DNA of 64,000 nucleotides from contig CAIIXF020000001.1 in assembly GCA_903813345.2 (NCBI GenBank), positions 29,078,001-29,142,000 on the forward strand, written 5' to 3'. Numbering within the stretch: position 1 is the stretch's first letter; every line of letters begins with the position of its first letter. The notes under the pieces were generated by a model. That model was not told the origin of the DNA. It searched no databases and worked only from the letters and a program-made list of their open reading frames with translations. The stretch is from Owenia fusiformis (taxonomy: Eukaryota). Shown here one piece after another: positions 1 through 42,800 of this stretch. A program made the translations under genes and the position numbers.

Positions 1-911
1 CAAGTTTTTAAATGGACTTTATACCTTTTGGCGGATGGATATGGAACCTCATACCAGAACTTGAATTTTGTGATTTTTTCAATATTTTTCAATGATTTAC
101 CGTAGTGACACCCTAACGTATCATAACTTCCGGAATGACATGCCTTTCGGAAAATTTTTGGGAATATTTTCACTTCATTTACATTTCTTGTATAACTGTA
201 CTTATTGTTGATCGGACGGAAAGATAAGCTGATGTAGTTATCGTTTACTACCATTTGGAAGGCACGTGAGGGTCCCATTCATCAGGTAACACTCATATGT
301 CGAAGTTATTGGTACCTGTTACACTGCTTGGTTGAGTCTAACGAAGCATTTTTGTAACGAAAGTTAGCGAAAAAATTGTGTCCACACTGGCTTTATCCAA
401 CCCTAACGAAGCAATTATTTGGTGTTACACTGCACTTAAAATGCTTCGTTGCGCGTGCGCATTACTCATCTGCCCCACCCACTTATTATGATTAATATTT
501 TTATTCTTTTGATATAAACCATTGATCAAACTCAAAAATCTAATTTTTAATCTTTATTTTAACAAATCAGCACAGAAAAAGACTAGTTCAAAATTCTCGG
601 GAAAATAAAACAAGATGAATGTGATCATTCCGTACACATGTCCATACATTTTTCCGATCATTTCAATTTTTATATATTTCAGCTGTCAATACGATTACAC
701 GTATTGTTTTCATTTTCTATCATTTCCTTTGGAAAACATATGGAATAAAAATAGGCCTATGTTAATTAGTAGGAGGAATTGGATTCGGGGTTTATACAGA
801 CGACTAGTACGTAATATCGTATAAAACGTTCAATTTCCAAATGGACTTCTCAGTTATATTTCAAACAGTGTAGCCATTACTAAAATATCTCGGTGTTCGG
901 CTGGTGGTTTA

Positions 912-1283
912 ACCGTTAATTTGAATTTTCGACCTACCAGATGCTTGAAAATCAAGGATTGCTAGTCTCATACTGCAACGTTTTTCTTCAAACCTATACC
1001 ATTAAAAGCAAAACAAAATTGCCTTTCTGTCGGTGCATTACTTTATTGTAAAGAGTCCCTCGTTCTAGCAGCGTTTTGGTCCCCAGCTGTTAGAAGGCCT
1101 TCTTACCGCTGGGGACCAAAATGCCGCTGGAAGTAGGGACTCTGTTTAAGAGAATAATGTACCATCAGAAAGGGAGTTTTGTTATGCTTTGAATGGAACA
1201 AGTTTGAAGAAAAACGGTGCAGTATGAGACTCTTAATCCTTGATTTTCAAACATCCGGTGGGTCAAAAATTCAAATTAACGGT
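912..1283. repeat. 372-bp imperfect palindrome (hairpin MITE)
   Basis: Arms pair all the way to the centre agaagg|ccttct at 1097/1098. Confidence 0.85.
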
Positions 1284-1576
1284 CGAAGTTAGGACCGCGT
1301 GTAACTACTATTTCATGACCAATTCATTTTAATATGAATATTACCCGTCTCGCCAATACACCATGCATATTTGAGTGAGTTTGACATAAATTAGTATGTT
1401 AATCCATCAGCCGTCCGTTGAATTCGAAAATGGCGCAAATAGGAAGAAACTTGAATACCAGTTGTAAGCATCGTCTTACGACACATCAATAGTGATTGGG
1501 GCTGGCCTAAAACATGCAGCCTCTCTGTGGCAAATATCTGTCGACAAGAAACAATTTTGGCCACCGTTCCTTGTCC

Positions 1577-2073
1577 GCAGGTTTTACCGTATTTGTATAC
1601 GGAAGTTTTGAAACGTAATTAATTCAACATATTTAAACATGAAGTTTAAATTCAATTACAATTTAAAATCGTCGAGGAATAAAATAATGGAACGACTAGT
1701 ACAAGTACATGTATTGCAATGGGGCGATAGCCAGTTGAATACGATTTCTGAAGAGAGACATTTTCGAATCAATCAAATCGGCTATATTCCTGATATGATT
1801 CACCGAGAAGCAATTGTATCAGTATCATGGTATTAACACCTTTAGAATTACATTAAAGGTATAATTATTCGAGGCGCAAGAAAAAATTAATATTAAACAT
1901 GTATGCCACAACTTTCTATTTAGTAAGCATATCTTATGTAATTTCAAAAGTTTACCCTTCCACACTTGAGACGGAGTTTTCTGAAAGAGGGACATTTAAA
2001 TATTCTAGGTTTATTCTCTAATAGATCAGATAAACGTTTCAAAACTACCGTAAACATATACGGTAAAACCTGC
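1577..2073. repeat. About 40-bp inverted repeats bounding a probable MITE
   Basis: gcaggttttaccgtat...ttttgaaacgt versus acgtttcaaaact...atacggtaaaacctgc. Confidence 0.55.
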
Positions 2074-3508
2074 GTTTTTTAGATTTAATACTTTTTGTTA
2101 TATCAATGCGAGGAAAGGCAGGGAATCGAATGAAATGCTACGAAAGACGGTAAATCACATTTATACGTGGCGTTTAGGGCTTGAGTTAGCGTCAATCAGT
2201 GACGCAAATGTGTAATTATTTTAATCAAAACGTAGCATTATAATAATACGTACTTAAAAACATGTTCTTTCCTCGCGATTCCTCTCATTTAATACAAAAT
2301 GATGAATGTGCTCTTTATTACGCGCATGCGCAAACCGCCAACTAAGCATTTTCTAACGAAGCTACCTGTTACACAGGCCAAAAAAGCTTCGTTGGGAGCT
2401 AACCTTCGTTGAATTTTCTACTCAATTGCTTCGTTATCAACTAAGCTTTTCCAACGAAGGCAGAGGTGTTACACTGGCCCAAAATTGCTTCGTTACGAAG
2501 CTTTTTGTCAAATTGCTTCGTAACGAAGCATTTCAACTGGCCTGTGTAACAGGGGTCATTCTTGCTATTTTTAACAGTTAACAAGCTGTAGGTAGATTAA
2601 ATCCTACAGGGAGCTCAAGTTGGAACTATACGTAATCATTTAGTAAACTGGACTGGGAAATCAGAGGTCGAGGGGTTTTTCAATAAAATATATTCCAAAA
2701 ATTCTTGACACCCAGTAAGTCGTAGGGTCGAAGGGTCGTAGGTCGAAGGGTTTTTAGTACATTCCGTTTCAAAGACTGTTTTTCTATGTGAATGAGACCT
2801 GCCAACGATTAGCAATGGCATTGGTTACAACTTTCTGGCTTTGTATAAAAAACCTCCTACCCACATACCCTCGTACCCACGTACGTGGGTCCTGACCCAG
2901 TCTTTAAAGAGTTAAATCTTTAACATTTTTTAAACATTATTCTATCTCAATGTATGCTTAATTATGGATGAATTTATGTACCCATATGCCTTTATTTCTA
3001 GATCGGACATCTGTCTCGTCATAAAATAAAGCCGGCATTGCATAATGTTCATTTGAGCTATTTGAGTGTTGTTTTTGATATATCGAAGCGATTTTTTGTT
3101 GATCGGGCAGTCTTACAGTGTACAACCAATCTATTGCTTGGCGCAAATTGGCCACATGGGGCATGTGTTGTAAAGTGCTGTAGTTTTTGACTCCATGAGC
3201 AGAATATGGTCAAACTTTCACAACAAAATTCACATTGAATGACCTGAATGATTCTGGATTAACGAAGTTATTCAACTTTTCATCGGTCCTGTTTTTTAAC
3301 ACCCTGTAGTTTCGATTTTTATCACATATACTTTTTATTCTTTCAAACGATATTACAAGTATTCATTGTTTGCACGACAGATTTGAACTATACGTGTAAT
3401 TTGTCTTATGTCTTTTATTTAATTTAATATCAGAATTGGAGATACAAAGTGATAGAGTGATCAATTCACACGATCTCAAGGAATAATAAAGGTTGCATTT
3501 CTGTTTAA

Positions 3509-4573
3509 AGGGTTCCGATTAGCATCCCGTATAAAAACAATATGGCGGCTCCAGGTGAATCAACTGGATCAGTCCATTTTTAAGAAATAAGGGGAGTTCT
3601 GTAAAATCCAGTTTATTGAAATTGTCTTTGAGTTAAAGTAATCCGTTTATAATGATTTTGAAAACGTTATCCAAAGAGTGATTGCGTTCAAAGAATACAT
3701 GTACAACAGCCAATATAAATCCTTGTATTAGAAACCGGTTTGTCTTGCTTTGTTTCATTTGTAGGATATTTCATATGCCAAGCTGTGTGCTATTACCAGG
3801 GCTGTCAACTTGGGACCACCTAATATGAGTGACTTCAAAATGTTGGACACCTAAGTCCAAATCTGAACACTTTTGTCCAAATTTTGAACACCTTTGGCCA
3901 ACTTTTAAACACCTTTGGCCAAAGTTTGAGCACCTTTGCCAAACTTTGATCACCTCAAATTTTTCGCGCTCGCTACGCTCGCGATATCGTCAACGGGGGG
4001 GGGGGGTAGGTACGAAAATTTTCAATGAACATGCGTGACATATACGGGATTCGCGTGACAAATCCGAACAAAATCCGTTCGGTTTTTTTCAGACGTTCGT
4101 ATTTTTACCGTATCGTAAACATATTTCGAAAAAATTTCTACAGAAATATTTTTGCGTGACAATTACCAGGTAAAATGCGTATTTGCGTGACATTTTCTGT
4201 CACGCAAAAAAAACTGGCGTGACTTCAAATTCTTCAGCAAATGCGTGACAAATACGCAAATTGCGGGACAGTTGACAGGCCTGTATTACGTTATGGGGAA
4301 ATTTAGATGCCAATTTTTCATTATTATACACAAATAGAAGATCCTGAAACTTCACCCATAAATGTGGAATTGATTTGTCAAAATAAAAATCACCCTTTTA
4401 TAAATGTGTGACGATCTATAATATACTTATGCTATATAACCGTTAGAGGTGTTGACACAACGACCTCGCGCCTGTGAACCCTTGAGTATTATTCCGGGAT
4501 CGGGCCTTTTATACTAAACGGTGAGCAACACCAGAAACGAGCGTTCGATTTGCTAAACGATATGCGTCACCCT
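3509..4573. mobile_element. TTAA-flanked element (Kolobok-like), copy 1, interrupted
   Basis: TTAA|AGGGT...ACCCT|TTAA; reverse complement of 5823-6365. Confidence 0.8.
3797..4283. mobile_element. hAT-like MITE with a 6-bp TSD
   Basis: CAGGGCTGTCAAC...GTTGACAGGCCTG; TSD TATTAC; empty site visible in the copy near 6105; gcgtgac subterminal motifs. Confidence 0.85.
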
Positions 4574-5822
4574 TTAACCGTGACGCAATTGAATAACGAA
4601 ATATTTGAAAAGTAGAAGGATTCGCTATATTCGTTTTTAATCGCTTTTTGGCACAATTTAAGGATAATTGTGCGCACAAGTTCAGTGAATCATTTAGATG
4701 GAATTAAAAGTTAGAGTTGCCAAACTTATGCAGGGGAGTGTAAGTTTGGTTTTGTAAACTTCGACATTATTCATGGCCGTTTGATCCATAATTAGGTAAT
4801 ATGAACTATGAAGAGTAGAGTTTTATTTTGACAATGATTTGATGTAAAACTGGTTTGAATGATAAAAGTTCAGCTTTGTAGTTTCTAGCTTTTTGCGCGT
4901 AAAACGTGAATACAATGGACAACAACGACACCAAATCTTTGACTAACATACGTTAATAACGTATAATATTCGTAAGAATGAATTCTAATAACATTTGAAA
5001 TAAACATCTAATAAAATGTGGTGAATTTAATTGGTTGGAAACTCTAAGAAATATATTTTTAAAAAGATGTCAACTTTTGGACAAGGGTAAACTTCCCGGG
5101 ACATTTACAATCTGCATGAGGTAACAGGAGGCACGGATTGCACTGAATGAAGGCTAGGAGATTGCTAATCAGCACTGATGTGTTATACAGGTAAGACTGC
5201 CCGATCAACAAAAAACATTTCGACATATCAAAAACATAAATCAAATAGCTTATGAACATTTATGCAATTCCGGCTTTATTTTATTTTACTAGAGAGATGT
5301 CAGACCTATAAATAAAGGCATATGGATGCATAAATTCATCTATAATTCAGGATAAACTGAGATTGAATAATGTTTTAAACATTTAAAAAGTTTAAAGACT
5401 GGGTCAGGACCCACGTACGTGGGTACGAGGGTACGTGGGTAGGAGGTTTTTTATACAAAGCCCAACTTTCTGTCTCAAAATACTTGACAAACATTTTAAT
5501 CCAAGGTAATAAAGAATTTCATAAATCCCCGGGGATTTAATTGACAGCATGACCAACCTTTATAGGCTTTATACAACAAAAACACAAGTGGAGCACTAGC
5601 AGAGATTTTACTGTTTTAAATTCACGAATTTTGAGATATCAGAATTTCACAGCTTTTAAATTTGGCCGTGGCTGGAGAGCCTTAAATTTTAAGTCACCAG
5701 AGCACTTGGAGTTGTGCGTCTCAACCTCTGAGGGTGGCCCAAATCCCTCAAAGAAAAGGCCTAGACATTTATGATCCCTTTGGGCCCCCGTTTGGCCATT
5801 CTGATAGGCACAGGATGTTTAA

Positions 5823-6365
5823 AGGGTGACGCATATCGTTTAGCAAATCGAACGCTCGTTTCTGGTGTTGCTCACCGTTTAGTATAAAAGGCCCGATCCC
5901 GGAATAATACTCAAGGGTTCACAGGTTCGAGGTCGTTGTGTCAACACCTCTAACTGTTATATAGCATAAGTATATTATAGATCGTCACGCATTTATAAAA
6001 GGGTGATTTTTATTTTGACAAATCAATTCCACATTTATGGGTGATGTTTCAGGATCTTCTATTTGTGTATAATAAGGAAAAATTGACATCTAAATTTCCC
6101 CATAACGTAATAGCACACAGCTTGGCATATGAAATATTCTACAAATGAAACAAAGCAGTTCTAATACAAGGATTTATATTGGCTGTTGTACATATTCTTT
6201 GAACTCTATCACTCTATGGATAATGTTTTCAAAATCATTATAAACGGATTACTTTATCTCAAACACAATTTAAACTGGATTTTACAGAACTCCCCTTATT
6301 TCTTAAAAATGGACTGATCCAGGAGCCGCCATATTGTTTTTATACGGGAAGCTTATCGGAACCCT
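5823..6365. mobile_element. TTAA-flanked element (Kolobok-like), copy 2, uninterrupted
   Basis: TTAA at both ends; near-identical inverted copy of 3509-4573. Confidence 0.8.
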
Positions 6366-21309: not shown

Positions 21310-21819
21310 TCATATGCTAGTAGCTGATATAGTAGTTGGAACATTTGGAGAAGGCTCAATGACCAACTCTCTAGGAATTCCACTTGAGCCAGCACTAGTC
21401 CCTGGTGATGACTGAATCCCACTTCCACTCGTTCCAGAACTATTTCCAGAGTTTCCTTTTCCAAATTTTGAATAGTGCTTTACTGGCTGACTGGATGGGT
21501 TGCTTGATAAATTACTTGACAGCTGGCTCTCTTCATTAAAGCCAAGTTCATTGCTAACCTCTGGAGATATATAGTTACTTCTTGGTACCTTTCCCTCATA
21601 TTTCATCACATAGTTATCTCTGGGCACTTGGGTTGGTGATGCACTAGATGTCACAGACATGATAGATGACCCCGACTCTGTTTCACATGAAATTCCACTC
21701 ACAGTCCCATTAGCTTCAGGAACTGTATTGAGACTATGGCTAAAGCCATTATTCAAATGAGTCCCACCATTTGCCACAATCCCACTGTCTTCGCTGGTTT
21801 GTCTTTTAACAGAGCCCAC
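21310..21819 (-). CDS. Receptor terminal exon 17: Ser-rich cytoplasmic tail with YVMK, YEGK, YISP, YSKF
   Basis: ORF 21310..21819 starts exactly at a catag acceptor in phase 0 and ends in TGA. Confidence 0.85.
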   Translation of the reverse strand: MGSVKRQTSEDSGIVANGGTHLNNGFSHSLNTVPEANGTVSGISCETESGSSIMSVTSSASPTQVPRDNYVMKYEGKVPRSNYISPEVSNELGFNEESQLSSNLSSNPSSQPVKHYSKFGKGNSGNSSGTSGSGIQSSPGTSAGSSGIPRELVIEPSPNVPTTISATSI

Positions 21820-24800
21820 CTATGAACAGAAACCATTTATTATATGTTATGAGATAGTCATTATTGGTGACACTCGATATAGTCAATGATTTTTCTGATC
21901 ACCGTTAAAAGATCCAAAATGGGAAGCCATGTGCAGCTTTAAATTCAAGGTACAAGAATTTAGGTTTTTGTTACTGATTCTAATATGATAAACAAAGGAA
22001 GTGCATAATCAATTAAGGAGTCATATATAGGCCTATCCATTTATAGACACTTCAAGACTAAAACATGAATCTCTAATAGATAATAACCATAATATATATA
22101 TATAGAGAGAGAGATAAATAGATGCCATTGATGGTTTTTATCATGCTAGAATAGCATTATATAATACAACACTTTATTTCTTGATTTACCAAATATTTCT
22201 ACTAGGATAAATGTTAAACTATCAGACTATTGCCATGCAATTCTTGTGAATAATTGTGCACACACTTACATATGAAGTTCAATAGGAAAATCAAGGCAAA
22301 CAATTGTAATAGTCTGGGTAATTTCTAGACTATTTGCCAATTTATATGACACAACATAGAACTTCAATATCTAAATCTGAATACAAGAGCCAGGATTTAT
22401 GAAAATGTATTCAATATCTTTTATACATACAGGGGATAAAAAGTCATCAGTCTGTCCACTACTAATATTCTCTAGACAGAAAGGTGTCCCACTGTTGGTA
22501 GATTCTGGATCAGTGTATCCATCTTGAGGTTGTCTACCTGAACCCCCGAAATGCTACAATAAACCACAATGGATCAGTTAGTAATATAACATGTTCATAA
22601 TATAACATGTTATTCTACATTTTATTTGTACCATATTTTATCTAATAATACATTCATAACAATTTCCTGATAAAATCACCAACATAAGGTTTTTGGTTAA
22701 TAGTTTTAGAAAAATGATATTATATAATTTGAAACTTGTTGGCAGTATAACAATCAATATCGGGTGTCTACAAAACAAAGACGTAAGACCTAAGACCTAC
22801 AAAACTAAGACCCCCCACGTTATAAAACTAAGACCCTGTTATAAAACTAAGACCCCCCACGTTATAAAACTAAGACCCTGTTATAAAACTAAGACCCCCC
22901 ACGTTATAAAACTAAGACCCTGTTATAAAACTTAGACCCCCCACATAATAAAACTAAGACCCTGTTATAAAACTAAGATCCCCCACATTATAAAACTAAG
23001 ACCCTGTTATAAAACTAAGACCCCCCACGTTATAAAACTAAGACCCTGTTATAAAACTAAGACCCCCCACGTTATAAAACTAAGACCCTGTTATAAAACT
23101 AAGACCCCCCACGTAATAAAACTAAGACCCTGTTATAAAACTAAGACCCCCACGTTATAAAACTAAGACCCTGTTATTAAACTAAGACCCCCCACGTTAT
23201 AAAACTAAGACCCCCCACGTTATAAAACTAAGACCCTGTTATAAAACTAAGACCCCCCACATAATAAAACTAAGACCCTGTTATAAAACTAAGACCCCCC
23301 ACGTCATAAAACTAAGACCCTGTTATAAAACTAAGACCCCCCACGTTATAAAACTAAGACCCTGTTATAAAACTAAGACCCCCCACATAATAAAACTAAG
23401 ACCCTGTTATAAAACTAAGATCCCCCACATTATAAAACTAAGACCCTGTTATAAAACTAAGACCCCCCACGTTATAAAACTAAGACCCTGTTATAAAACT
23501 AAACCCCCCACGTTATAAAACTAAGACCCTGTTATAAAACTAAGACCCCCCACGTTATAAAACTAAGACCCTGTTATAAAACTAAGACCCCCCACGTAAT
23601 AAAACTAAGACCCTGTTATAAAACTAAGACCCCCCACGTTATAAAACTAAGACCCTGTTATAAAACTAAGACCCCCCACGTAATAAAACTAAGACCCTGT
23701 TATAAAACTAAGACCCCCACGTTATAAAACTAAGACCCTGTTATAAAACTAAGACCCCCCACGTAATAAAACTAAGACCCTGTTATAAAACTAAGACCCC
23801 CACGTTATAAAACTAAGACCCTGTTATAAAACTAAGACCCCCCACGTTATAAAACTAAGACCCCCCACGTTATAAAACTAAGACCCCCCACGTTATAAAA
23901 CTAAGACCCCCCACGTTATAAAACTAAGACCCTGTTATAAAACTAAGACCCCCCACGTTATAAAACTAAGACCCCCCACGTTATAAAACTAAGACCCTGT
24001 TATAAAACTAAGACCCCCCACGTTATAAAACTAAGACCCTGTTATAAAACTAAGACCCCCCACGTAATAAAACTAAGACCCTGTTATAAAACTAAGACCC
24101 CCCAAGTTATAAAACTTAGACCCTATTATAAAACTAAGACCCCCCACGTTATAAAACTAAGACCCTGTTATAAAACTAAGACCCCCCACGTTATAAAACT
24201 AAGACCCTGTTATAAAACTAAGACCCCCCACGTTATAAAACTAAGACCCTGTTATAAAACTAAGACCCCCCACGTTATAAAACTAAGACCCCCCACGTTA
24301 TAAAACTAAGACCCTGTTATAAAACTAAGACCCCCACGTTATAAAACTAAGACCCTGTTATAAAACTAAGACCCCCCACGTTATAAAACTAAGACCCTGT
24401 TATAAGAATCAGTCACCGTGCCTTGCTCTGCTCGCCACAAGGTAGTCTTGCCTCTGGGCCTTGTGTTCCCTAGTAACATACAGATTCTACAAAAGATAGT
24501 CTTGCTTCTGGTCCTTGTGTTCCCTTCTAATATACAGATTCTCCCCACTAACATAAAGATTCTACAAAAGGTAGTCTTGCTTCTGGTCCTTGTGTTCCCT
24601 TCTAATATACAGATTCTCCCCACTAACATAAAGATTCTACAAAAGGTAGTCTTGCTTCTGGTCCTTGTGTTCCCTTCTAATATACAGATTCTCCCCACTA
24701 ACATAAAGATTCTACACATGGTAGTCTTGCCTCTGGCCCTTGTTTACCCTAAAAAATTCTCCATCTAAAATGTCACTCGACTTTTTGGCAATTAAAAGTC

Positions 24801-27800
24801 CCTGCCTGCATTTAGTAGTCATATATTGTCATGTGCATTATTTTGAAACCATATCCTAATTATTTCACAAACCCTTTTTTTGATTCTGCCATAGTTTCCA
24901 ATTTGTAAACAGCATTTAGCCTTTTTAATTGGGAACTTTTTTGAAATTTCCAAAATGGCTGCCATGTGATTCCAGAATTAACATGAGTGTGACGTGACAT
25001 CACAGTTGCTCGTTCCTAGGTAACAACAAGATCACAATTGCTCGTTTCTAGATAGCAACAAGATTTTTGATAAAATGGCACAGAATTACCCTGATTAACA
25101 CCCTTAAAATCCGATTTTCAAAGAATATATTTGGAGAAACAATAAAAGGTAAGTGGAATAAATTAGAAGATGGTTTCAAGTTACCACAGAAGTCAATTTG
25201 AAACTCAAGAATGCTTTCTTTGACTCATAATTACAAAAAAGTCGAGTGACATTTTAGATGGAGAATTTCTTAGTAACATACACATATGGTAGTCTTGCCA
25301 CTGACCCTTGTTTTCCCTAGTAACATGGTGGTTCAAGATTTCAGACCCATCTTTCTCACATAGATTGCTGAACTTATTTCAGTTAAGAATTCCTAATAGA
25401 ATTAAGAATTAATAGCTGAAACTGTTCTGTTTGTCCTAGCAAACAATATCCCAATATGCATTTGAAATTCATTTTTGTCTATATGTGTTGACAGTCTGTG
25501 ATGTCATCATCAATCATCACAATGGGAATTAGGTGAATTCTATCTGTGACAGTGAGATTATCTATGATGTCACATAGTAGTTTGATTTCTAAGAAATGTG
25601 GCAGAGTTCTATCTATGACAGAGATGCTTTGTGATGTCATCATGAATTATCTTGTTTCCATTGTGATGATTGATGATGTCATCAGAGTACTTTGTGATGT
25701 CATCGTGAATTACCTCATTTCTATTGTGATGATTGATGATGACATCACAGACTGTCAACAAATAGACAGAAGAAGTTGAACTACAAGTTGGAAAATTGTT
25801 TGCTAGGGCAAAACAACTCAGTTTCAGCTAATAATTCTTAATTCTATTAGGAATTCTTAACTAACAATGGTTCAGCAATCTGTGCCAGAATGATGGGTCT
25901 TAAATCTTGAACTACCATTAAACATCACTTCCAAAACAATACCAGCATAAAATGGAGTATCTCTTTTTATGCTCAGCATAAAATGGGACATCACTTTTTA
26001 TGCCAGCATAAAATGGGATATCACTTTTTATGCCAGCATAAAATGGGATATCACTTTTTATGCCAGCATAAAATGGGACATCACTTTTTATGCCGGGCAT
26101 AAAAAGTGATATCAAAAAATTACTTTTTTTAAAAATCAACAAATCCGGGTATTTGTTACAGTCCATTTTTATATAATCCGCTGTTGTATGTTACTGGGGA
26201 ACACAAGGCCCAGAGGCAAGACTACCTTGTGGCGAGCAGTGCAAGGCACGGTGACTGATTCTAATAGCAGGGTCTTAGTTTTATAACGTGGGAGGTCTTA
26301 GTTTTATAACGTGGGGGGTCTTAGTTTTATAACAGGGTCTTAGTTTTATAACATGGGGGGTCTTAGTTTTATAACGTGGGGGGTCTTAGTTTTATAACAG
26401 GGTCTTAGTTTTATAACGTGGGGGGTCTTAGTTTTATAACAGGGTCTTAGTTTTATAACGTGGGGGGTCTTAGTTTTATAACAGGGTCTTAGTTTTATAA
26501 CGTGGGGGGTCTTAGTTTTACAACAGGGTCTTAGTTTTATAGCGTGGGGGGTCTTAGTTTTATAACAGGGTCTTAGTTTTATAACGTGGGGGGTCTTAGT
26601 TTTATAACAGGGTCTTAGTTTTATAACGTGGGGGGTCTTAGTTTTATAACAGGGTCTTAGTTTTATAACGTGGGGGGTCTTAGTTTTATAACAGGGTCTT
26701 AGTTTTATAACGTGGGGGGTCTTAGTTTTATAACAGGGTCTTAGTTTTATAACGTGGGGGGTCTTAGTTTTACAACAGGGTCTTAGTTTTATAGCGTGGG
26801 GGGTCTTAGTTTTATAACAGGGTCTTAGTTTTATAACGTGGGGGGTCTTAGTTTTATAACAGGGTCTTAGTTTTATAACGTGGGGGGTCTTAGTTTTATA
26901 ACAGGGTCTTAGTTTTATAATGTGGGGGGTCTTAGTTTTATAACAGGGTCTTAGTTTTATAACGTGGGGGGTCTTAGTTTTATAACAGGGTCTTAGTTTT
27001 ATAACGTGGGGGGTCTTAGTTTTATAACAGGGTCTTAGTTTTATAACGTGGGGGGTCTTAGTTTTATAACAGGGTCTTAGTTTTATAACGTGGGGGTCTT
27101 AGTTTTATAACAGGGTCTTAGTTTTATTACATGGGGGGTCTTAGTTTTATAACAGGGTCTTAGTTTTATAACGTGGGGGGTCTTAGTTTTGTAGGTCTTA
27201 GGTCTTTGTTTTGTAGACACCCAATCAATATCAACAATATCAGCATGATTGAGTGGGGCCTTCCTGATCAGTGATTATAAGCCTATAAAATATTTTTTTA
27301 TTTGAAGATAATCAAAGCTGGTAAACAGGCATTCAAGTTTTAGCAAAAAATTCATATAAAATATCATCAGGAGGGAAAAAATCTCTTGTTGTTCCCCTAC
27401 ATTTTCTACAGTTATAGTAAAAATCTCAATGGCCATTTTGAATTTGGATTCTCTTAGACAGACACTGTTAACCTCATAAAGCAGGTTTATCTTAACTTTG
27501 ACTCAAATGTAGGGGAGTCTTTTATTTCATCCAAAAAATAAGTTGTTTTTTGAGTAGTGAAAACACATTCTGGAACAAATGTTCTTTCATACTCCCAGAA
27601 AATTAATCAAGGCATTAACACGACAAAATGTCACCACCTAGTTGCTCACCATATCATTAGTTCAATCTTAAGTCAGATTTGAATTTCTGTAAACAATTTA
27701 AAAAAGACCTTTTTTGACCCTGAGAAGGTCGTAGAAGATGAAATCTCAAATCTTAAGTCAGATTTGAACTTCTGAGAACTTGTAGATGATTTTGAAAAAA

Positions 27801-30800: not shown

Positions 30801-33800
30801 GTAGGAACAATCGAAACCTTGTGAATCAAGATGGCTAATACTGTATATGGAAAGTATCAAGTTAATGTGTAGAAGACAATGTCATTAGATTGCTACTCAC
30901 CATTAGAAATATCATTCTCTGGATAGTAGCGGATAATCCATCCTAAGACTGGATATTTCATCTCACTACATAGATATGATTTCCATGAGACAGTTAAGCT
31001 TTCACTGATACCAGAGTCATCAATGGCAACAACTTCTTTAGGAGCTTTAACCCTTGCTGAATACAACAAAAGCAATTTAATTGAGGGTTGAGGTTTAATT
31101 GTGGTTAAGGGTTTGCCAAGGACATTTGGTTAATATATTGTAACTGTAACTTGTAAGTATGTACATGTAACTCATTTGTCTATTTACCAGCTGTTTTTAA
31201 TATCAGCTTGTTTTAAATACAGATTATAAACATGTAATTGTTTTGGTCACCATCTGTATTAACCCCTCTGATAGGTTAAAATCTTAATACTGTAATATAA
31301 TATGAGCTGTACTATTTTTAAGCATGTGACTTCTTTTATACTTACGTATGGAATAATCATACAAGCAATCTGCCCAATTTATCCCAGAATGGATCTTCCC
31401 ATTAAATACTGACACACCATATAAGTTATTAGTTGCCCCTTCTAAACTCATCATATGGCTTGTTACCCCATACTCCAAGACTTGAAGTACAATGGGTTTC
31501 TGAAATAATGTCCATAAAATACATCCATTCAAACATGCAACAAAGCTTCCAATCAATTAGACTGTTCCATTAAAGGATTATAAATAAATACTCAATTGAT
31601 ACAAGAGCTTATATGTAGAAGTTCTCTTCAAATATATTTTACAATTAAAATCAATTTAATGTCTATTTATCTTTGTTATTCCCTTATTATAAAAGTGACA
31701 ACAAGTGAGTGATTGCAAAAGCTCACCATGTGAGCTAATGAACTACATATACAATGTTAGCTGTATCCAAAATAGCTACAACAAACTATCAACTGTATGC
31801 ACTCTGCTCCTCACCTTTCCATTACAAACTTTGTCACTGAACCCCTGTCTTGGACAATATACTACAGTTGCTTGTTCTGATGGCCCAATATTGAACCTCA
31901 CTGTGACGTTATTTATATCACTGAGGGCAACAAGTTGTTGAACAGGAAACACTGGAAAAGTGAATCATTTACCAAATGAGTACTGCTTGCACAGATTGAT
32001 AAGTGTCTGATACGACTAAGATGTTGTATGAATAGAGGTAATGATAAAAAGGGATACATTTTTATGAAACTACAGTATATTCAATGATCCATTTAAAAAA
32101 CGATCAGATTTAAAGGGACATTCCTTCATAACCTGTTCATAACTGAATTGAATACTTAATTTTTTTTATTGTAAACATCCATATAAAGATATCAACGGAG
32201 TTGGACTAAATGCATATTTGACATAACGACTGTTTTTGCCACATATTCATTTTGTATGATTACATTAGATGCATCATAAGAATATTCATGAAATATGACC
32301 AAAACAAAAAATAAATGTTTCACAGCAATGAGTTCATTTTCACTTACCTTGTTCAGCTCTGGGTACTTCAATAAAGTTTTGTAAGGTAGAACTATACCCA
32401 ACTTCAGTTCTACACTCAACCACCAATCTGTATACACGGTCCTGTTTTAATGTGGTGGAGCACATGTTCCTATCTGCAGGAACAACACACAGAGTTGCAG
32501 CATTATATGAGATTGTAGGACCATCTTCTGATACATCACGGACACGACAATCTTTAAGAATGCCATTCTTATCTTCTTGTGGGATATCCTTCAATAAATA
32601 CAAATCTTCTGTCTAGCTCCTGTGCCACAAGTTCCCCACCCATCCTCAACAATTACATAGTGAGTCAAATCAAATCAAAAAGAGTTCATACAATATTGAC
32701 AATGTATATTTTGTATGACAAATTTAAACTAATTAATAATTTTCAATATTCATTAATATTATGAGGGAGTTTATCCTACAGGTTACCTCCCAATACAGAA
32801 CAACTGTTCGTGTGGAATCAGTTTGATTCAAGTTTCTTATTTCAAATCCACCTCCATGGACGCCTGGCCCTCTAGCAGGGACTGAAACAAACAGCTAAGT
32901 GTCAATATTCTAGCACAAAGCATGTACATAACATAAAGCATGTACATAAATTTAAACAAACATTTATTAGTTTACATGACATCTTAATATGCAATAGTAA
33001 CTCACTGTCTTGTTTAGTCCTTGCTTTGTCCTGTTTACTGTCACTCCATGCTTCAGGATCAGAGCTATTCCTAGAGGCGACCTTAACAGTCACATCAAAA
33101 GTGTAGTTTTGATATGGATGTAGCCCTTCCACAAGAAACCAAGTCCTGTCTGTCTCACCAGCATTCTGAAAAATCAATTTGTAATCAAAAAAGGTAACTA
33201 GAAAACTCCATAGAGTAGCAAATCCCACCAAGCAAATCCCACCAAACAAAACATAGTAAATACCTTGTGAATCATTATGGACATTACATGATAGAAAAAG
33301 TAGTAGTATAAGCAAACACCCATGATGCCACATAATAAATTCTTTCTTGAGCAGATGTCTTATACAATAAAGCATAATCGTATAAAATTTCAACCAAAAG
33401 TTATTTCTTCCTTGGCATCAGTAAAATGTAAAATTGGAACCAAACCCACCTTCTAGTATTTGAGTTTAATATCAAACATTACATTTTTAAGAAAAATGGC
33501 AGCCATTTTGAAATTCAGTGGCCATCTTGAAAATTTCTTCTTGAGCAGAGTTATTTTATTTCTAGGCATCAGCATATAAGATTTGGACCAAATTTGAATT
33601 ATCAAAGATCACTTTTTTAAGAAAACTGATGGCCATTTTGAATTGCGCACCATATTGTAAATTCCTTCTTAAACAGAGACAAGAGGTGAACATTTTCTAA
33701 AAATCCTCTTTAAATTGGCTTAAGTTTTGTTTTGCCTAGTTATTCTATAACCCTTATCAATATAATATTTCTCAATCGCAGGATGTTTCTGACATAAAGT

Positions 33801-36800
33801 CAGAAATGTTTGACCTTGTATATGTAATTACCTAACTACTGAATAATATATAATCATTACATGAAGGCAATAAAGGTTTGTTTTTTGATTTGCTAGTTTT
33901 TTCACCTCCCACCCTCCTTAGATTTTGCCCTTCTTCAAGATGTTAAACAAATAATTGATTTAGAATGGCCTTACCTGCCATTGATGCTTGTCATCCCTCT
34001 TATATAGAACTCTGTACATGATTGATCTGATTGGTTTATCTCCATTTGGCTCCCAAGTAACATTGATTGCAACACTGCTGTCAACAATGAGCTTCACCTT
34101 ATTTACAGCATAAGGAACCACTGGAATAAGATAATATATTGGCTTTTTAGATAAATATATAAAGAAAAGCACCAACCATCTCAAAGGACGATTCTCGGTT
34201 TGGAGAACAGTCTCCTGGGCTAATAATTTTTTCAGGAAAAATATAGAAATATTACCCAAATTAAACTATGAATATTCAAAAGAGGACATTTAAATCTACA
34301 AGATGTAAAATTAACAAATTGGTCTGAAGCAGGGATAACGCTCAATTAGACCGATTCAATAAAATACAAGTCTCGATTTGGGGAAAGAAGTTCATCAGTG
34401 TACTGCGCTGATATTTTTTTGCGAAAAATCAAGAAATATTACCCAAATTAAATTATGACTATTCAAAAGAAGACATTCAAATCTATATTATGTAAAAAAA
34501 ATCAAATTTGTCCGAAGCAGGGATAATGCTCATTTAGATTGATGTTACTTCGTTCTCCAAACCGAGAATCGTCCTTTTGAATTGTTTTAGGTGGTAAAAT
34601 ACTTTTCATTAACAAATATTAAATTTAATTTAAACAAATTGTCCTCAGAGTTACAAAACTTCAGTGGGATAGCCATCTTGGATTTCATTGAGCATGGGAC
34701 ATTGGCTAATGAGTTGCCATGAAATCCTACTTCAGAGATTTATGCACCAGTCACCAATCATGTGGCATGAAGTAGTACATTTACTATGGGCTTCCGTATC
34801 TATGCTCTCTCTTGCAGTGGTTTTACAAATATCATTGGTCAAATCAATTTGTAAATAAAGGTAAAGCCTGGCAGAAATATGAGTAAAGTTACAATGATTT
34901 GAAGAACAGATGCAACTGGATTTATGCTCCTTGTCTTCAGATGTACATGGTGTCAAATCTCCAAAGCTTGGGTGCCTGCAAAAAACACAAAAGTTAATAT
35001 GACAACACAAATAATAGATTTAATAATAAATACTCACTGTGATCCTTCATATAGATCCTTTGAACTTGTTTTATAAGTCCTAGCTCATTCTCTATTGTCA
35101 GAAACAAATACAATATGGGCTGGCTCTGTATAATTCTCGAGAAATAACAATGATTCTCAGTACAGCTGCATATGGGGCTCACACCACATTGATACGGACC
35201 ATCGCCATATCTGTAAAACAGATATGCATGTACAAGGGCCGATCAAAAAGTTTCTTACCGTTGGCTCTAGATTTTATAATAAGAGGAGTTGGAAGCTCAA
35301 ACTATAACATGAGACAGGATAGTTAGTTTGCTTGAAACTGTACGAGTTTCATATAAATTGGTTCATTGGTAGTGACACAGAGTCAATACATATTTTCAAT
35401 GATTGAACCAGAACAACGGCAACGCCAAAGCGTAGCGAATCCCATCGAACAGCCATGGGTGGCATTTTTACAAACAAAGTATATAGCAAAAATGGCAGCC
35501 ATTTTTCAAAATGGCCGCCTTCTACCAAAAGTGTCATTAGACCATGTGCGATGCTTATAGTATTCATATACCAAATATGAACAAAATTGCTCCACTACTT
35601 TTCAAGTTATAGTAAAAACGTTAAAATGGCGGCCATTTTTCAAAATGGCCACCTTCTACCAAAAATGCCATAAGACAGTGTGCCGTGCTTATAGTATTTA
35701 CATACCAAATATAAACAAAATCGCTCCACTACTTTTCGAGTTATAGTAAAATACGTTAAAATGGTGGCCATTTTGAAAAATGACCGCCTTCTACCAAAAG
35801 TGTCATTAGACAGTGTGCCATGCTGACAGTATTCACATTCCAAATATTAACAAAATCGCTTCACTACTTTTCGAGTTATAGTAAAATACGTTAAAATGGC
35901 GGCCATTTTTCAAAATGGCCGCCTTCTTTCCAAAGTGTCATAGGACAGTGTGACATGCTTATAGTATTCACATACCAAATATGAACAAAATCGCTCCACT
36001 ACTTTTCGAGTTATAGTAAAATATGTTAAAATGGCGGCCATTTTGAAAAATGGCCGCCTTCTACCAAAAGCGTCATCAGACAGTGTGCCATGCTTATAGT
36101 ATTCACATACCAAATATGAACAAAATCGCTTCACTACTTTTCGAGTTATAGTAAAATACGTTAAAATGGCAGCCATTTTTCAAAATTTTTTTCAAAATGG
36201 CCGCCTTCTTTCAAAAGTGTCATAGGACAGTGTGTCATGCTTATAGTATTCACATACCAAATATGAACAAAATCGCTCCACTACTTTTCGAGTTATAGTA
36301 AAATATGTTAAAATGGCGGCCATTTTTCAAATTTTTTTTCAAAATAGCCGCCTTCTACCAAAAGTGTCATCAGACAGTGTACCATGCTTATAGTATTCAC
36401 ATACCATATATGAACAAAATCGCTTCACTACTTTTCAAGTTATAGTAAAATACGTTAAAATGGCGGCCATTTTTCAAATTTTTTTTCAAAATAGCCGCCT
36501 TCTACCAAAAGTGTGTCATGCTTATAGTATTCACATACCAAATATGAACAAAATCGCTCCACTACTTTTCGAGTTATAGTAAAATATGTTAAAATGGTGG
36601 CCATTTTTCAAAATGGCGGCCATTTTTCAAAATGGCCGCCTTCTACCAAAAGTGTCTTTAGACAGTGTGCAATGTTTATAGTATTCACATACCAAATATG
36701 AACAAAATCGCTCCACTACTTTTCGAGTTACAGCAAAAATCGCAAAATAACGAGTAAAGGCCGCCATTTTTCAAGATGGCTGCCATGTGCTACTTTAATA

Positions 36801-39800
36801 TCTACATTTCTAGCTTTATTAATGTCCTATATAATTTTTTTACATCTAAAACATATTGCTATTACAGTTTTACATATTGCACCTAAATTACTGTAAATTC
36901 GGCACTAAAATGGCTGCCATTTAGAAATGAGCGGCAATTTTGAAAATCGGCTTTCGAGCAGAACTTCTACATCCATAGGCTATATGTGTACAAAATATGA
37001 ACAAAATCGGGCCAACGGTATTTGAGTTATTGCCCGGACGGACGGACGTACGTACGGACGTACGTACGGACGGACGGATGGAGGCGTTCCCTATATCCCT
37101 CCGAACTTCGTTCGATGGGATAATTAGGTGGAGCAGCGTTTTTTATAATAAAATTATGCTAAGCTGCAGTTTTGGAAATTTCTAACACTAAGTAGTGTCA
37201 TCTGTCAACAGACTGTAGTTTAATCATGTTTAATTAGTTTTTCTGCTAATATTCATTCTCATTCAAAATATTCAACCCCAGTTGCAATGCACTTCCTATA
37301 TCTGTCCACTCGATCCAAAAACACGTGTTAAAGGCCTTCATATGAGAGGTTTTAAATGACGTTGGTAAATTTCCAGAACCACAACTTAGCAGATATTTTA
37401 TATATTACGCTGCTCCACCTAACTTTGTCATTGAAAATATGAATTGACTCTGTATCACTACCAATAAACTTATTTATATGAAACTTGTACAGTTTCAAGC
37501 AAACTAACTATCCTCTATAATGTTAAAGTTTGAGCTTCCAACTAAAATATTTCCATTTTTTGGACGCAAACTTTTTTTAGGTCAATACTACAATGTGTTT
37601 ACAACGATACCTAACAAAAACAAATAATTATGATCTCTCATCTTTATTTGAATCGTAAATAAGGCTCAACATGTTGAATATTTACAAATAATCATGATTC
37701 TCTCGAATTTTTTCGACTTTGTTTATTTTTAGATTTGAAACCATGACACGCCACAGTTTTTCCTATTCAGAAACAAATATTAGGTTATTCATGAAATAAA
37801 ATGTTTTCATTGTCGAATGAACGAACATGCATTTATTCAGTCCGTACTTCGTTTACTTCCATTTTAAATTCGCGGCAAGAAATCAAAAACTGAAAGGTGT
37901 TTTGGTAAAAAATGCTTTTAAAATAAAGTTATACCTCAAAACAGGCTAGAAATAGGGGACACACTTTTTTTTAAAAAATTGCGTCCTTGGGACTCACAAA
38001 TTTTCTAACCTAATGCAAGCGCTGTATATATACATTTACATTTCATACTGGGTGTCAAATAAATGTTATGTTGTTACTTGTAACAGTAAAACACAAAATG
38101 TATCATGATTAATAACAAACAAATCCCTTTTTGTTTAAAACATGAAATGAAAAGGTTACATTAAATCTACAATTTGCGGTTAGTAGTATAAATTGTGATT
38201 AATTAGTTATAAGTTGCACCTATAAGACCTGTCAAAATACCATTTAACCAATAACTAATCGCAATAGTTTTCAAATGTTGTTTTTTGATTTGTGGATGAA
38301 ATATGAACAAAATTGCTGACTGCTACTTTTCAAGTTATAGTAAAAAAGCTAAATAATACTTGTTAAAATGGTGACCATTTTTCAAAATGGCTGCCTTCTT
38401 CTCAAAGTGTCATTAAACCTGTGCCTGCATATAGTATTAACATATCAAATATGAGCAAAATCGCTCTACTACCTTTCGAGTTATAGTAAAAAATGTAAAC
38501 TAACACAGATAAAAATGGCAGCCTTTTTTCAAAATGGTCGCCTTCTACCAAAAGTGTCATTAGACAGTGTGTCATGCTTATAGTTAGTATCCACATACCA
38601 AATATGAACAAAATCACTCCACTACTTTTCAAGTTACAGCAAAAAATGTAAAATAACATATAAAGACTGCCATTTTTTAAGATGGCTGCCATGTGCTTCT
38701 TAAATGCTTTATTAATGTCCTGTAAAAATTTTATACATTTAAAACATATTGTTACTACAGTGTTTTTTATATATTGTACCTAAATTACTGTAAAATCAGC
38801 ACTAAAATGGCAGCCATTTTTGAATGAGCGGCCATTTTGAAAATGGCTTTCGAGCAGAATTTAAACTCCCATAGGGCATACTGTACGCCCGGTATTATTC
38901 GCGTGCGATTAACTTTCGCGCTTTTCGCGAGGGTGTTAAAATCGCGAAAAATTATCGTCGCAAAATTGCCAATTAAATCTCCGGTAATTTGTTTTTACCC
39001 GGGGCTCTGATGCATTTCGTTTTGTCTACTAGTTTGGATCGAGTTATAGTACTTCAATAGTACTGTGCAACTCCATGACTTTACTATGCGCATGCGCGGC
39101 AATGAAAGAGCACGTGCGCACGATTGTTCACGTGATCGTAGCTTGCAATTTGATTGGACATCATATACTGGGGAATCCCCGAATACGTTAAAATACAGTA
39201 TTCGCGAAATTTAATAGCCGCGAAACCGTGTTTTCGCAAAATTCGCGAAATTAAAGCTCGCGAATAATACCGGGCGTACAGTATGTGTACAAAATATGAA
39301 CAAAATCAGGCGAACGGTATTTGAGTTATTGCCTGGACGGACAGACGGAGGCGTTACCTATATCCTTTTGAACTTCGTTTGATGGGATCCACAGATACTA
39401 GTTTTCTGCATGAAAAAAATCAAAATTCTGCAAAAAATTCTGCAAGAAAAAAAGCAAATTCTGCAAGTCAGCTACTTTCTAGGTAAGAACTGTGCGTCAT
39501 TAGCGAACTCGCTTTAGCGAATTTAAACGTGATAGAATGTTGAATTTCACGGTGAAATCGTACTTGTACTCAATAATGATTGATTGTTGGACATAAACAG
39601 ACACTCTTCAAATACCCCGCAAAGGTAGGAGATCGTAAAATATGTAATTTCTGGAAATTCTGGTAATTCTGCGGGATTTTCATGAAAATCAGGGATTCTG
39701 CAAAAAAATTGAAGTTTTGTCAAATTCCGTCCACGCTGCGGAGTGACAAGAAATACTGAAAATGGACAAAAATCTATTTATTGGAACATGTGAACAAATC

Positions 39801-42800
39801 ATTTTTGGTACCCCTAAAAGTAAATGAGAATATTTTTAACCCCTTTTCATCTAAAATTTTGCTCTGAATACAAACAGTAATTATACACGAACACCATTAC
39901 ACAGGTAAAACTCATCTTAACCCTATTATAAAAAAAATTCCATTTTTACCTAATTGTATTCAATTCTAATTCTAAGTTTCTATGTTGTTAAAATTTCCTC
40001 TTCTATTTTTTAGACCAGAGTTATCTATCATTAAATGAAAGTCACTTATATACTGTCCAAGACCACACCTATGTGTCATTAAATGAAAATTACAAAGACC
40101 AGAGTTACTTACGCAAAGCTGTATAAAACAATGGTTGTTGTATGCAGGTAAGTAACATTCTTCTGCACAGGTTCCCAGGAAAAATGTCCATCATTCCAGT
40201 TATTAAACCTAGCATGGAAATTTGTTGGCATCAATGGTTTCCCTGAAAAAGATAATGTAAGAAAATGTTGTTAAGCAATAAAATAAATATAAGTGGCTGT
40301 ATATAGCTAGTAGATTAAAAGATGTCATATGAACAACAATGTATCAGAATTAGTGAATACAAAAAGAAACTGAAACTATCAAATTCCTGGACAAAATTTG
40401 ATATATGTGACATCTTTTGAGTGAAGTTGTATTTTTATAACTGTATTAGGTTATTAAGCATAAAAGGGGTCTCAAATAAAACTGCTGTAAGTGATCTGGG
40501 AAGCACACTATCAGATGCTTATCCAAAATGGCAAGAAAATTTTAATCATGATTAAAAAAAGTTGATTAAACTAGCTTAAGTGTGTCACAAATAATTTAAT
40601 TTATCAATGCCAGCACTATTTAATCATAAGTGCACAATATTGCAAATAACAAGCCAATTTACACGTTTGATTCATTCATTTTCAGAAATAACCTCTTCAG
40701 GTTTTAAATGTAAATGTCACTAGGTTTGATTTACTTGAAAAGCATTAGATTTATTTAACATAATCAAACAAATGTTGGTATATGTAAATAAAAACGTTTT
40801 TGAACAAAGTCTATGTCAGGCTGTTAAATGAGCATACATTATATCTTATCTTATCATTTGTGTCACCATCCCTTATTGTAAATTATTTTTATAGGAGTCT
40901 CACGCCCGGTGATCGTAGAATTGGGACGGAGGGGGGGAGCAGGCAATTTCTGCTAGAAATTTCAACAAATCTGGAAGATTTATTTTTTAAAGAAGAAGTT
41001 TACTATTGAATTGCTAAATAAATAGGCTCACGGTATTGTAAAATATGTTAGGTATTCTAGGATTATTTTTCAACCGATACTCTTTTAAGATATAAGATCT
41101 ATTAAAAAAGGCGCAACGCACCAACGTGCAAAAGTCAATGTTGTTGCTATAAATGAAGCAACAATGGTGTACATGACCTGTAATAAATACTTGTAAGTGA
41201 CATTATCGTCACAAAATTAATGTTATTGCTGACTTTGTAAAATAAGTTTCCATAGGTGAAATAAAAAATAATCGAAAATAATTTTGGGACGGAGGGGGGA
41301 GCAATATGTACTAAGACATGATACATATTGCTCCCCCCCTCCGTCCCATAATTATTTTTGATTATTTTTTATTTTACTTATTGAAACTTATTTTTCTTAA
41401 ATTCAGCAAGGGCATTAATTTAGTTATGATATCGTCACTTACAAGTATTTAATACAGGTCGTGTAGACAATTGTTGCTTGATTTATAGCTAAAACGTTGA
41501 TTTGTGTCTGTTGGTTGCCTCGCGCCTTTTTTAATAGATCTCATATCTTAGATGCCTATCGTTTCAGAAAAAATCCCAGAAGACCTAACATATTTTACCA
41601 TACCGTGCGCCTATCAATTCAGCAATTCAATAGTAAACTTTTTCTTGAAAAAATAAATCTCTCAGATTTGTTGAATTTTCTTGCAGAAATTGCCTGCTCC
41701 CCCCCTCCGTCCCATTTTCACGATCACCGGGCGTGAGTCTACAATGAACAATTTATTCCTTAAATACATGTGTAGGCTATAAATTAATTCTATTTCTGTT
41801 GAACACTCCACTCAGGTTAATATGTCGTCCTATGAGAATAAAAATGTCCCAACTCACATTTTTGTAAAACTGAGAAATCAATTTTTGAAAGTTTAGACAT
41901 CTGTAACTTCAATAGTATCTATCTGACATATATGTAAAACTGTTTTTGAGCATATTAAAAATGGAGATACATGTAGGACAATTCGATTCCGAATTTTTCA
42001 TAACATTAAAAGATTAAAGCTGAGCTATGTCCATTTTGCTATGTATTTTCAATGGTCACAAATTTCTCTATTCAATTTTTCAAAAATAAATTCAAATCAC
42101 AGTCTAAAATTGTAATATAATAATTCCTAGTCACATGGTGTAATTCGAACAATTTGATTCATTAAAATGGTACATAGAACAATGTTAAATTGTATTTTTG
42201 AATTTTCTATGGAGTTAGGACAATTTGACACCGAAAAGCAGGCTATTGAGAGGAGGTAACGGTAAGGGAATATCACAGGAGGAAAGAGGGTGATTTAAAT
42301 AGTGAAAATCTGTGAAATTTTCAATTTCACATTTACTCCAATATAGCTAAATATATACTAGTAATGAAGAATATGGATTGCAGTGACTCTGCCTCTGATC
42401 TGACCTCTGACACTAAGTTCAAGTTCGCAAGTATCAATTAATTACTTTAAAATGTAATCTCTAACAATCAAAACAAGAACACAAATGTGTACAAAATGTC
42501 CCCACCTATGGGTGATCCTGTCAAATGGTTATCCTAAAAATGAGTAGACAAGACTTTACCGACACAATTTGATGACGGAAAATCCAAAATGGCCACCTTA
42601 AAATTTACCTAGAATGCCAAAAAATTAATCAGATCTAGATTTTCATACTAAGAATCATCCCTGAAAATTTGAAATTGATCTACAAAACGGTTCACCTAAA
42701 AACGCGTAGACAAGACTTTACGGGCAGGATTTTAAGACGGAAAATCCAAAATGGCTGCCTTGGCATTTATCCAGAATGCCAAAAAACTAATCAGATCTAG

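Follow-up and report, generated by a model that had tools for sequence, protein, structure and literature searches.

Two candidate mutually exclusive exons for the predicted binding module of a gene resembling cytokine receptors in Owenia fusiformis

The stretch of the genome of the annelid Owenia fusiformis analyzed here (the window: 64,000 nucleotides, positions 29,078,001 to 29,142,000 of the forward strand of contig CAIIXF020000001.1, assembly GCA_903813345.2) contains a large gene, which we call W, whose predicted product is laid out like a cytokine receptor. Within the part of that product that would form the binding module, the second half of one domain is encoded twice, by two adjacent exons, 5a and 5b. 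The initial annotation of this DNA had proposed that these two exons are mutually exclusive and that they provide one gene with two receptors of different cytokine specificity. Here, we examine the splice sites and the reading frame of the pair, the RNA reads that fall on it, and its relationship to exons of neighboring genes, and we suggest, with moderate confidence, that 5a and 5b are an ancestral, mutually exclusive pair that encodes part of the binding module of W. All positions given below are those of the window.

Results

Gene W and its exon pair

The exons of W are given in Table 1. The Ig-like exon 3 is 77% identical (tblastn) to residues 57-153 of P0002, an O. fusiformis protein of 468 amino acids, and a Pfam search of this exon found no family. 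We read exons 4 and 5 as the first FN3 domain (D1), and exons 6 and 7 as the second (D2), of a cytokine-binding-like module situated behind the Ig-like exon. Exon 9 is followed by more FN3-like exons, by a hydrophobic exon and by a serine-rich last exon that ends near 21310. Apart from the intron between 5a and 5b, the traced introns of W span from 124 to 6,288 nucleotides (nt).

Exons 5a and 5b have AG/GT borders and identical splice phases, and the length of each is 2 modulo 3. The acceptor of 5a ends in ctgttttacag and its donor reads gtgagt; the acceptor of 5b ends in gtgttttttgcag and its donor reads gtaaat. In the short intron that separates them, the candidate branch site TATTAAC occupies positions 34999-34993; 43 nt separate its branch A from the donor of 5a, and 18 nt from the acceptor of 5b. 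When exons 3 to 9 were joined in a script, the combinations 4-5a-6...9 and 4-5b-6...9 were open throughout. Inclusion of both exons led to ...KDHSTQALEI and a stop, and skipping of both to ...YSFAGSLCCK and a stop; an mRNA with 5a and 5b together, or with neither of them, thus reaches a stop codon within 8 codons. The reading frame permits only either/or use of 5a and 5b if an open protein is to be made. Most of these features had been described in the initial annotation: its coordinates for two phase-matched exons with intact sites, 62 nt apart, were reproduced to the base, as were its counts of 57 and 63 codons and of 4 and 5 cysteines; the stops that it predicted on double inclusion (STQALEI-stop) and on double skipping reappeared in the joined exons, and the tattaac that it placed about 40 nt from the 5a donor has its branch A at 43 nt.

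Table 1. Features of gene W and of the neighboring paralogue U, with RNA depth in the runs X17, X18 and X19; domain assignments are predictions.
Feature	Position	Strand	Description	Depth X17	Depth X18	Depth X19
Gene W	about 46.8 to 21 kb	minus	Multi-exon; exons traced by splice sites and frame; AG/GT borders throughout			
Exon 3	46806-46531	minus	Ig-like domain exon, phase 1 to 1; from splice sites, frame and tblastn			
Exon 4	40242-40113	minus	130 nt; first half of first FN3 domain (D1); ends in GC before donor gtaagt			
Exon 5a	35210-35038	minus	173 nt (1 base + 57 codons + 1 base); 4 Cys; C-terminal half of D1; depth in bins 34975-35081 and 35082-35188	3.52 and 4.43	0.41 and 0.44	0 and 0
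5a/5b intron	35037-34976	minus	62 nt; donor GTGAGT, candidate branch site TATTAAC, T-rich tract, CAG			
Exon 5b	34975-34785	minus	191 nt (1 base + 63 codons + 1 base); 5 Cys; C-terminal half of D1; depth in bins 34761-34974	0	0	0
Exon 6	34120-33975	minus	146 nt; first half of second FN3 domain (D2)	7.09	4.83	2.57
Exon 7	33165-33006	minus	160 nt; second half of D2; WSXWS-like remnant ...PEAWSDS...			
Exon 8	32881-32787	minus	With exon 9, a further FN3-like domain; RNA reads present			
Exon 9	32588-32348	minus	With exon 8, a further FN3-like domain; RNA reads present	3.4-5.7	0-0.7	0.9-4.6
Candidate transmembrane exon	29422-29335	minus	Hydrophobic, ...GLIAAVSVFVVLLAGIGLSVCLK; from open reading frame and splice sites; outside the RNA-mapped region			
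Paralogue U, last four coding exons	62923-62765, 61341-61183, 60761-60627, 57431-57279	minus	tblastn with P0002			

RNA reads on W

Three RNA-seq runs of 2026 that carry the same species label and belong to one study (X17, X18, and X19) were sampled to 6, 6, and 12% of their reads, respectively, and the reads were mapped at 95% likeness to positions 32300-35480, a region that avoids the 1.2-kb tandem array of intron 4 and does not extend to the junctions of exon 4. W is expressed at a low level and is spliced, as seen from the zero depth in the intron bins 32621-32727 (between exons 8 and 9), 33691-33904, and 34654-34760. All of the depth on W exons is on the first-mate-on-plus side, which is the side expected in standard stranded libraries for a gene on the minus strand. 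The depth on 5a is exon-like in X17, a trace in X18 and zero in X19. By simple arithmetic the trace in X18 amounts to about 44 bases (0.41 x 107), the size of the exonic part (35038-35081) of the bin 34975-35081, and these 44 bases fit a single read that ends at the 5a donor. In at least one of the samples, W transcripts include 5a as an exon. The proposed use of both exons was consequently borne out by the RNA for one of them: 5a was covered in two of the three runs (in one as a trace), 5b in none. A further data set, X1 (Logan contigs), behaves as DNA or as unspliced RNA, one of its contigs crossing the 5a acceptor at 35106-35260; depth on 5b is zero in X1 and is uninformative.

The RNA reads differ from the window at 12 listed mismatch sites within 177 nt of exon 9 (32383-32559), several of them in all reads, and also at 34080 and 34113 in exon 6. 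Either polymorphism at the W locus is high or the reads mapped there come from a close paralogue.

Homology of the two exons

The two exons had been regarded as homologous though very divergent, and the comparison upholds both parts of this description. Their local BLOSUM62 score of 60 was reached by none of 5000 composition-preserving shuffles (23.6 +/- 4.65), whereas their identity in a global alignment is only 27%. In tblastn searches with 5a or 5b alone, the other exon was not reported at E <= 10. This low identity, together with the lack of a mutual tblastn match, argues that the duplication which gave rise to the pair is old. No third copy of the exon was found by tblastn within the 64-kb window, and in its six frames the NHC.F motif is confined to 5a and 5b. 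The segment between NHC.F and the conserved L-Y-L-x-L strand reads SRIIQSQPI in 5a and THISAR in 5b, and thus differs in both sequence and length.

Exon types in the paralogues

Two annotated O. fusiformis proteins encoded on a common 62.2-Mb contig are related to W. The first, P0001, is a 122-residue "unnamed protein product, partial [Owenia fusiformis]" that consists of the tail of exon 3, an exon-4-like segment, a 5b-type exon and the head of exon 6; it comes either from a strongly diverged allele of W or from a third paralogue. The second, P0002, is the product of U, a tandem paralogue that lies directly upstream of W. The exons of U within the window encode residues 268-468 of P0002 at 98-100% identity (tblastn), its first 267 residues, including exon 5, lying beyond the window end, and a 5b-type exon was not found in the 1,077 nt upstream of U exon 6 inside the window. 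The 468 residues of P0002 comprise a signal-like start, an Ig-like domain, the binding module and about 95 Cys/Gly-rich residues, without a hydrophobic segment. U may encode a secreted receptor-like subunit beside a membrane-bound W; the clusters nearest to P0002 in the ESM Atlas are those of the soluble IL27B (EBI3) and CRLF1.

The exon 5 of P0002 is 46% identical (26/57; tblastn E 2e-8) to 5a of W and 29% identical to 5b, and it has in common with 5a a YG.....C at the start and the motif FSRII.SQ. Exon 5b is 86% identical (54/63) to its counterpart in P0001. For comparison, exon 4 of W is 76% identical (32/42) to that of P0001 and 57% identical to that of P0002. These alignments suggest a split of the exons into a 5a type (W and U) and a 5b type (W and P0001), and both types are present in annotated O. 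fusiformis relatives, the former in P0002 and the latter in P0001. The 5a of W is closer to the exon 5 of U than it is to its own neighbor 5b, and its divergence from the U exon is about that of the constitutive exons. Exon 5b, with 86% identity to P0001 against 76% for exon 4, is at least as well conserved as a constitutive exon. Neither 5a nor 5b looks like a decaying pseudo-exon; the decay of one of them in relatives, which the initial annotation had envisaged as an outcome unfavorable to its proposal, was not seen (46% and 86% matches). Either the types were already separate before U and W were duplicated, or a later duplication was followed by a much faster divergence of 5b.

Two protein searches were made, one in a word-indexed database (models of 101-2000 amino acids) and the other with a HMMER profile against 1.84 billion representatives. 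The profile was built from P0001, exon 4, 5a and 5b, in a MAFFT alignment that set the first four residues of 5a in the wrong place. The search had four matches at E <= 0.001: P0001, P0002 (E 2e-8), P0003 and P0004. The last two (with 14 and 6 matching stretches, respectively) were discarded as repetitive low-complexity matches, and no relatives outside Owenia were found by the profile among the 1.84 billion representatives.

These comparisons bear on the notion that 5a and 5b belong to successive domains, separated by an exon that has escaped notice, or that one of the two is a chance open frame. Their 62-nt spacing leaves no place for an unseen exon, and that part of the notion, which the initial annotation had kept in view, is excluded. 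The gap is filled by the donor, the branch site, the pyrimidine tract and the acceptor, and joint inclusion of the exons meets a stop after 7 codons. The homology of the pair is significant in the shuffling test, and for each member an annotated protein offers a closer match than the other member does. Nothing was found in favor of this explanation, and taken as a whole we consider it scarcely credible.

The encoded domain and its receptor family

The initial annotation described W as "Domeless/gp130-like". W resembles gp130, IL-6R and Domeless in its Ig-like exon, its predicted module of two FN3 domains, its additional FN3-like exons and its predicted transmembrane segment. The WSXWS motif is incomplete both in W exon 7 (PEAWSDS) and in P0002 (RNAWSES); a partial motif such as the AWSDS of W is also a feature of Domeless. 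Unlike the gp130/IL-6R family, W has no Pfam cytokine-receptor match above threshold, and the Cys of its D1 (4 in 5a, 5 in 5b) are all in the second half of the domain, with none in exon 4. The canonical D1 of class I cytokine receptors contains two Cys pairs, and the spacing in W departs from it. Pfam searches with the single exons and with P0002 returned only fn3, at 13-18 bits and so under the cut-off of 25; for exon 6 there were weak fn3 and Tissue_fac matches, again under the cut-off. A PDB sequence search gave only weak FN3 matches, to DCC and PTPRD (E 0.05-0.45). In the region downstream of the module, a regex scan of 29450-21000, which possibly missed small exons, revealed no Box-1-like proline-rich motif near the hydrophobic exon, and no YxxQ motif was found on reading of the open reading frame (ORF) of the tail.

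Structure predictions with AlphaFold2 (AF2) had a predicted local distance difference test (pLDDT) of 42 for P0001 alone, which is too poor to test the fold, and an equally inadequate 39.8 for P0002 with a 7-row alignment whose exon 6 row was partly misaligned. The ESM Atlas has models of its own for both proteins (pLDDT 0.66 for P0002 and 0.70 for P0001). For residues 150-375 of P0002, which include the 5a-type exon, the nearest feature cluster in the Atlas is IL27B (0.95; 193/256 features), and the structural neighbors in all ten rows are class I cytokine receptors (CRLF1, IL27B, IL11RA, gp130, and OSMR), with template modeling (TM) scores by query of 0.67-0.77. For P0001, which is of the 5b type, the nearest clusters are the D1 of CSF2R/TSLPR (0.92; 181 features), in which PF09240 (IL6Ra-bind) is present in 100% of the members, and the structural neighbors are receptors of the same kind (TM by query 0.54-0.74). 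These Atlas matches are to be taken as leads, yet they agree for the 5a-type and the 5b-type domain. The "Domeless/gp130-like" label is in keeping with the language-model features and predicted structure and is not confirmed by the Pfam and PDB sequence searches, which see only weak FN3; it is reasonable for the architecture, and membership of the family is putative.

In GHR, EPOR and gp130, the E-F loop of D1 is a ligand hot spot. If the D1 of W is built in the same manner, exon 5 would then supply its C-terminal strands and with them the region that matches the E-F loop. The difference between the exons in sequence and length from NHC.F to L-Y-L, when placed beside this hot spot, speaks against the idea that both exons are used without any switch of ligand, their choice serving instead to tune folding, disulfides or dimerization, or to set the dosage of the receptor by way of degraded transcripts. 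We hold this idea to be improbable, but there are observations that would suit it. The two exons differ in their Cys count, and the fifth Cys of the 5b type is at residue 50 in W and at residue 45 in P0001; this residue would stay unpaired, the other four being able to form two disulfides. Moreover, both of the non-productive forms stop early, and RNAs that skip both exons would fit the presence of exon 6 without 5a or 5b in X18 and X19.

How the exclusive use might be enforced

Transcripts with both exons or with neither would be expected to go to nonsense-mediated decay (NMD), which would leave the 4-5a-6 and 4-5b-6 receptors. In addition, the joining of 5a to 5b may be hindered by the shortness of their intron, in which 43 nt separate the 5a donor from the branch site. 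In alpha-tropomyosin, the exclusion of exons 2 and 3 is steric, with the branch point about 41-42 nt from the upstream donor. W is similar in that the branch point of the downstream exon is near the upstream donor, at a distance of 43 nt. The tropomyosin distance is below the mammalian minimum; the minimum in Owenia may differ, and C. elegans splices introns down to about 40 nt, only those below roughly this size being deemed unsplicable in the account given in PMC4165533. The same account has 14 of the 19 mutually exclusive clusters with exons of non-3n length in C. elegans relying on NMD (PMC4165533).

All donors of W are U2-type, so that spliceosome incompatibility is not applicable. The local RNA structure at the 5a/5b boundary is not unusual (z 0.24, with a fold as good or better in 112 of 200 shuffles), and a search of 33900-40300 for docking or selector candidates found none, the inverted repeats there all being satellite or transposon copies. 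In X17, which has reads on 5a, the zero depth on 5b is compatible with a hindered joining of 5a to 5b as well as with the decay of the double-inclusion product.

Repeats around the pair

The introns of W are full of repeats. The intron that leads from 5b to exon 6 contains an element resembling a miniature inverted-repeat transposable element (34174-34586), with 35-nt terminal inverted repeats that are 89% complementary. On both strands the RNA depth over this element is 280-620, compared with about 5 for gene W, which indicates that this family of elements is heavily transcribed. Intron 4 contains a tandem array (35489-36738 and 38299-38658) of 135-147-bp units, 1.2 kb of them in one array, with the palindromic core AAAATGGCGGCCATTTT. 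At the edge of the array (35403-35480), RNA depth is about 800-1000 and many of the reads continue into other copies. Also in intron 4 is a 116-nt inverted repeat (35287-35402 and 37428-37543, 91% complementary) whose near arm lies only 77 nt before the acceptor of 5a. In the pre-mRNA its two arms could pair into a long stem; they resemble two members of one repeat family. A late intron of W contains two 42-bp minisatellite arrays of opposite orientation, at 22819-24397 (38 copies) and at 26264-27190 (22 copies), and these yield long artificial ORFs (KTKTPHVIKLRPCY repeated).

Discussion

The history that we propose for this locus begins with a tandem exon duplication that would have produced 5a and 5b in W, one member of a cluster of paralogues. 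The pair appears to be old, as each of the two types is used in annotated proteins of the paralogues. In the sampled RNA it is 5a that W uses, and 5b would be used in other tissues, at other stages, or under other conditions, in which case the resulting receptor would have an altered binding surface.

A number of observations weigh against this proposal and have to be set out together. There are no 5b reads in any of the three runs, despite depths of 7.09, 4.83, and 2.57 on exon 6, and these runs, each sampled to 6-12% of its reads, all come from a single study. In X18 and X19, moreover, exon 6 is covered (4.83 and 2.57) with a depth of 0.4 and 0 on 5a and of 0 on 5b; these exon 6 reads may reflect divergent alleles below 95% likeness, cross-mapping from a paralogue, or transcripts that skip both exons. 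The read joints listed are repeat-derived and include no W junction, not even a constitutive one; they are uninformative as to the splicing partners of either exon. The evidence for the use of 5b comes from another locus or allele, that of P0001. The layout of the 62-nt intron is that of an ordinary short invertebrate intron and may well be spliceable. In the word-indexed database, 5a had no match, 5b matched only P0001 and the Ig exon only P0002, W itself being without a model. Finally, the two ligand specificities are purely putative.

As to the missing model, the published annotation of O. fusiformis is described as a combination of RNA-seq transcripts, hinted Augustus predictions and PASA, with 99.29% of transcripts supported by RNA-seq, from which 5,779 models overlapping repeats were dropped (PMC9977687). 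Such repeat filtering could explain why W has no model, its introns being repeat-rich.

Much of the above would also be accounted for if the ancestral pair had been divided among the paralogues, W having become constitutive for 5a, with 5b a skipped relic or an exon of trace use, while P0001 kept 5b and U kept 5a. We regard this main alternative, which comes into view with the cluster of paralogues that the initial annotation was unaware of, as possible, if rather doubtful. It agrees with the RNA, in which 5a is seen in two of three runs and 5b in none, and with the single type carried by each annotated relative; the gtaaat donor of 5b is also weaker than the gtgagt of 5a and the gtaagt of exon 4. 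Only 9 of the 63 residues of 5b differ from P0001, which on a rough estimate is perhaps too little time for the decay of a disused exon. Against such a division, 5b keeps an open frame, a strong acceptor (a T-rich tract and CAG) and a usable donor, and its 86% identity to P0001, compared to the 76% of exon 4, is the opposite of relaxed constraint. The silence of 5b is, furthermore, that of three partly sampled runs of one study, passed through a 95% filter at a locus with many read mismatches. We continue to favor, with the moderate confidence expressed at the outset, a pair of exons that W itself can use in alternation.

Such pairs are familiar from other receptors. FGFR2 of vertebrates, with IIIb and IIIc, and egl-15, the FGFR of C. 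elegans, with 5A and 5B, have adjacent homologous exons that are used one at a time, as is proposed for W. As in W, the exons are of non-3n length, and the frame shifts on double inclusion or double skipping; in both, such an exon supplies the C-terminal half of the beta-sandwich domain with which a single-pass receptor binds its ligand. The FGFR exons belong to an Ig domain of a tyrosine kinase receptor, whereas those of W belong to a predicted FN3 domain. In FGFR, both isoforms, their regulation by tissue and their ligand specificities are proven, whereas the W pair is known from its sequence and from the RNA of 5a. In the arthropod Dscam1, the tandem exons of the exon 4 and exon 6 clusters swap half of a beta-sandwich domain and alter its binding specificity. 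The Dscam1 clusters comprise tens of variants governed by docking/selector RNA pairing, whereas W has two exons for which no competing RNA structure was found. Within this literature, PMC4165533 lists egl-15 5B/5A among the mutually exclusive exons of C. elegans, and alternative exons of Dscam are mentioned in PMC4165533 and PMC13530194. The intervening intron of egl-15, at 14 nt, is too short to be spliced, whereas that of W has 62 nt. In the cytokine receptor family, a search of open-licence papers and preprints found no report of mutually exclusive exons.

Little is known of cytokine receptors beyond the vertebrates and the insects. According to a 2026 survey in which annelids were included, homologues of IL6R could be traced only to molluscs (PMC13203501). 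It is possible, though less likely than not, that by mutually exclusive splicing one annelid gene makes two membrane receptors which differ in the ligand-contacting half of the cytokine-binding module, and that the exon pair predates the local expansion of the receptor-like paralogues, among them a neighbor annotated without a transmembrane segment. If so, it would be the first specificity switch in the style of FGFR IIIb/IIIc in the class I cytokine receptor family, and the choice of exon together with the choice of paralogue would diversify the recognition of cytokines or pathogens in a spiralian. With its 62-nt intron and its exons of non-3n length, the W locus is also a compact spiralian test case of how exclusivity is achieved. 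Should W use only 5a, the locus would be an example of an alternative exon pair that was divided among paralogues after gene duplication. Should both exons be used, the cytokine-binding module would be one that can be diversified by exon switching, a route that is known from the FGF receptors and from Dscam.

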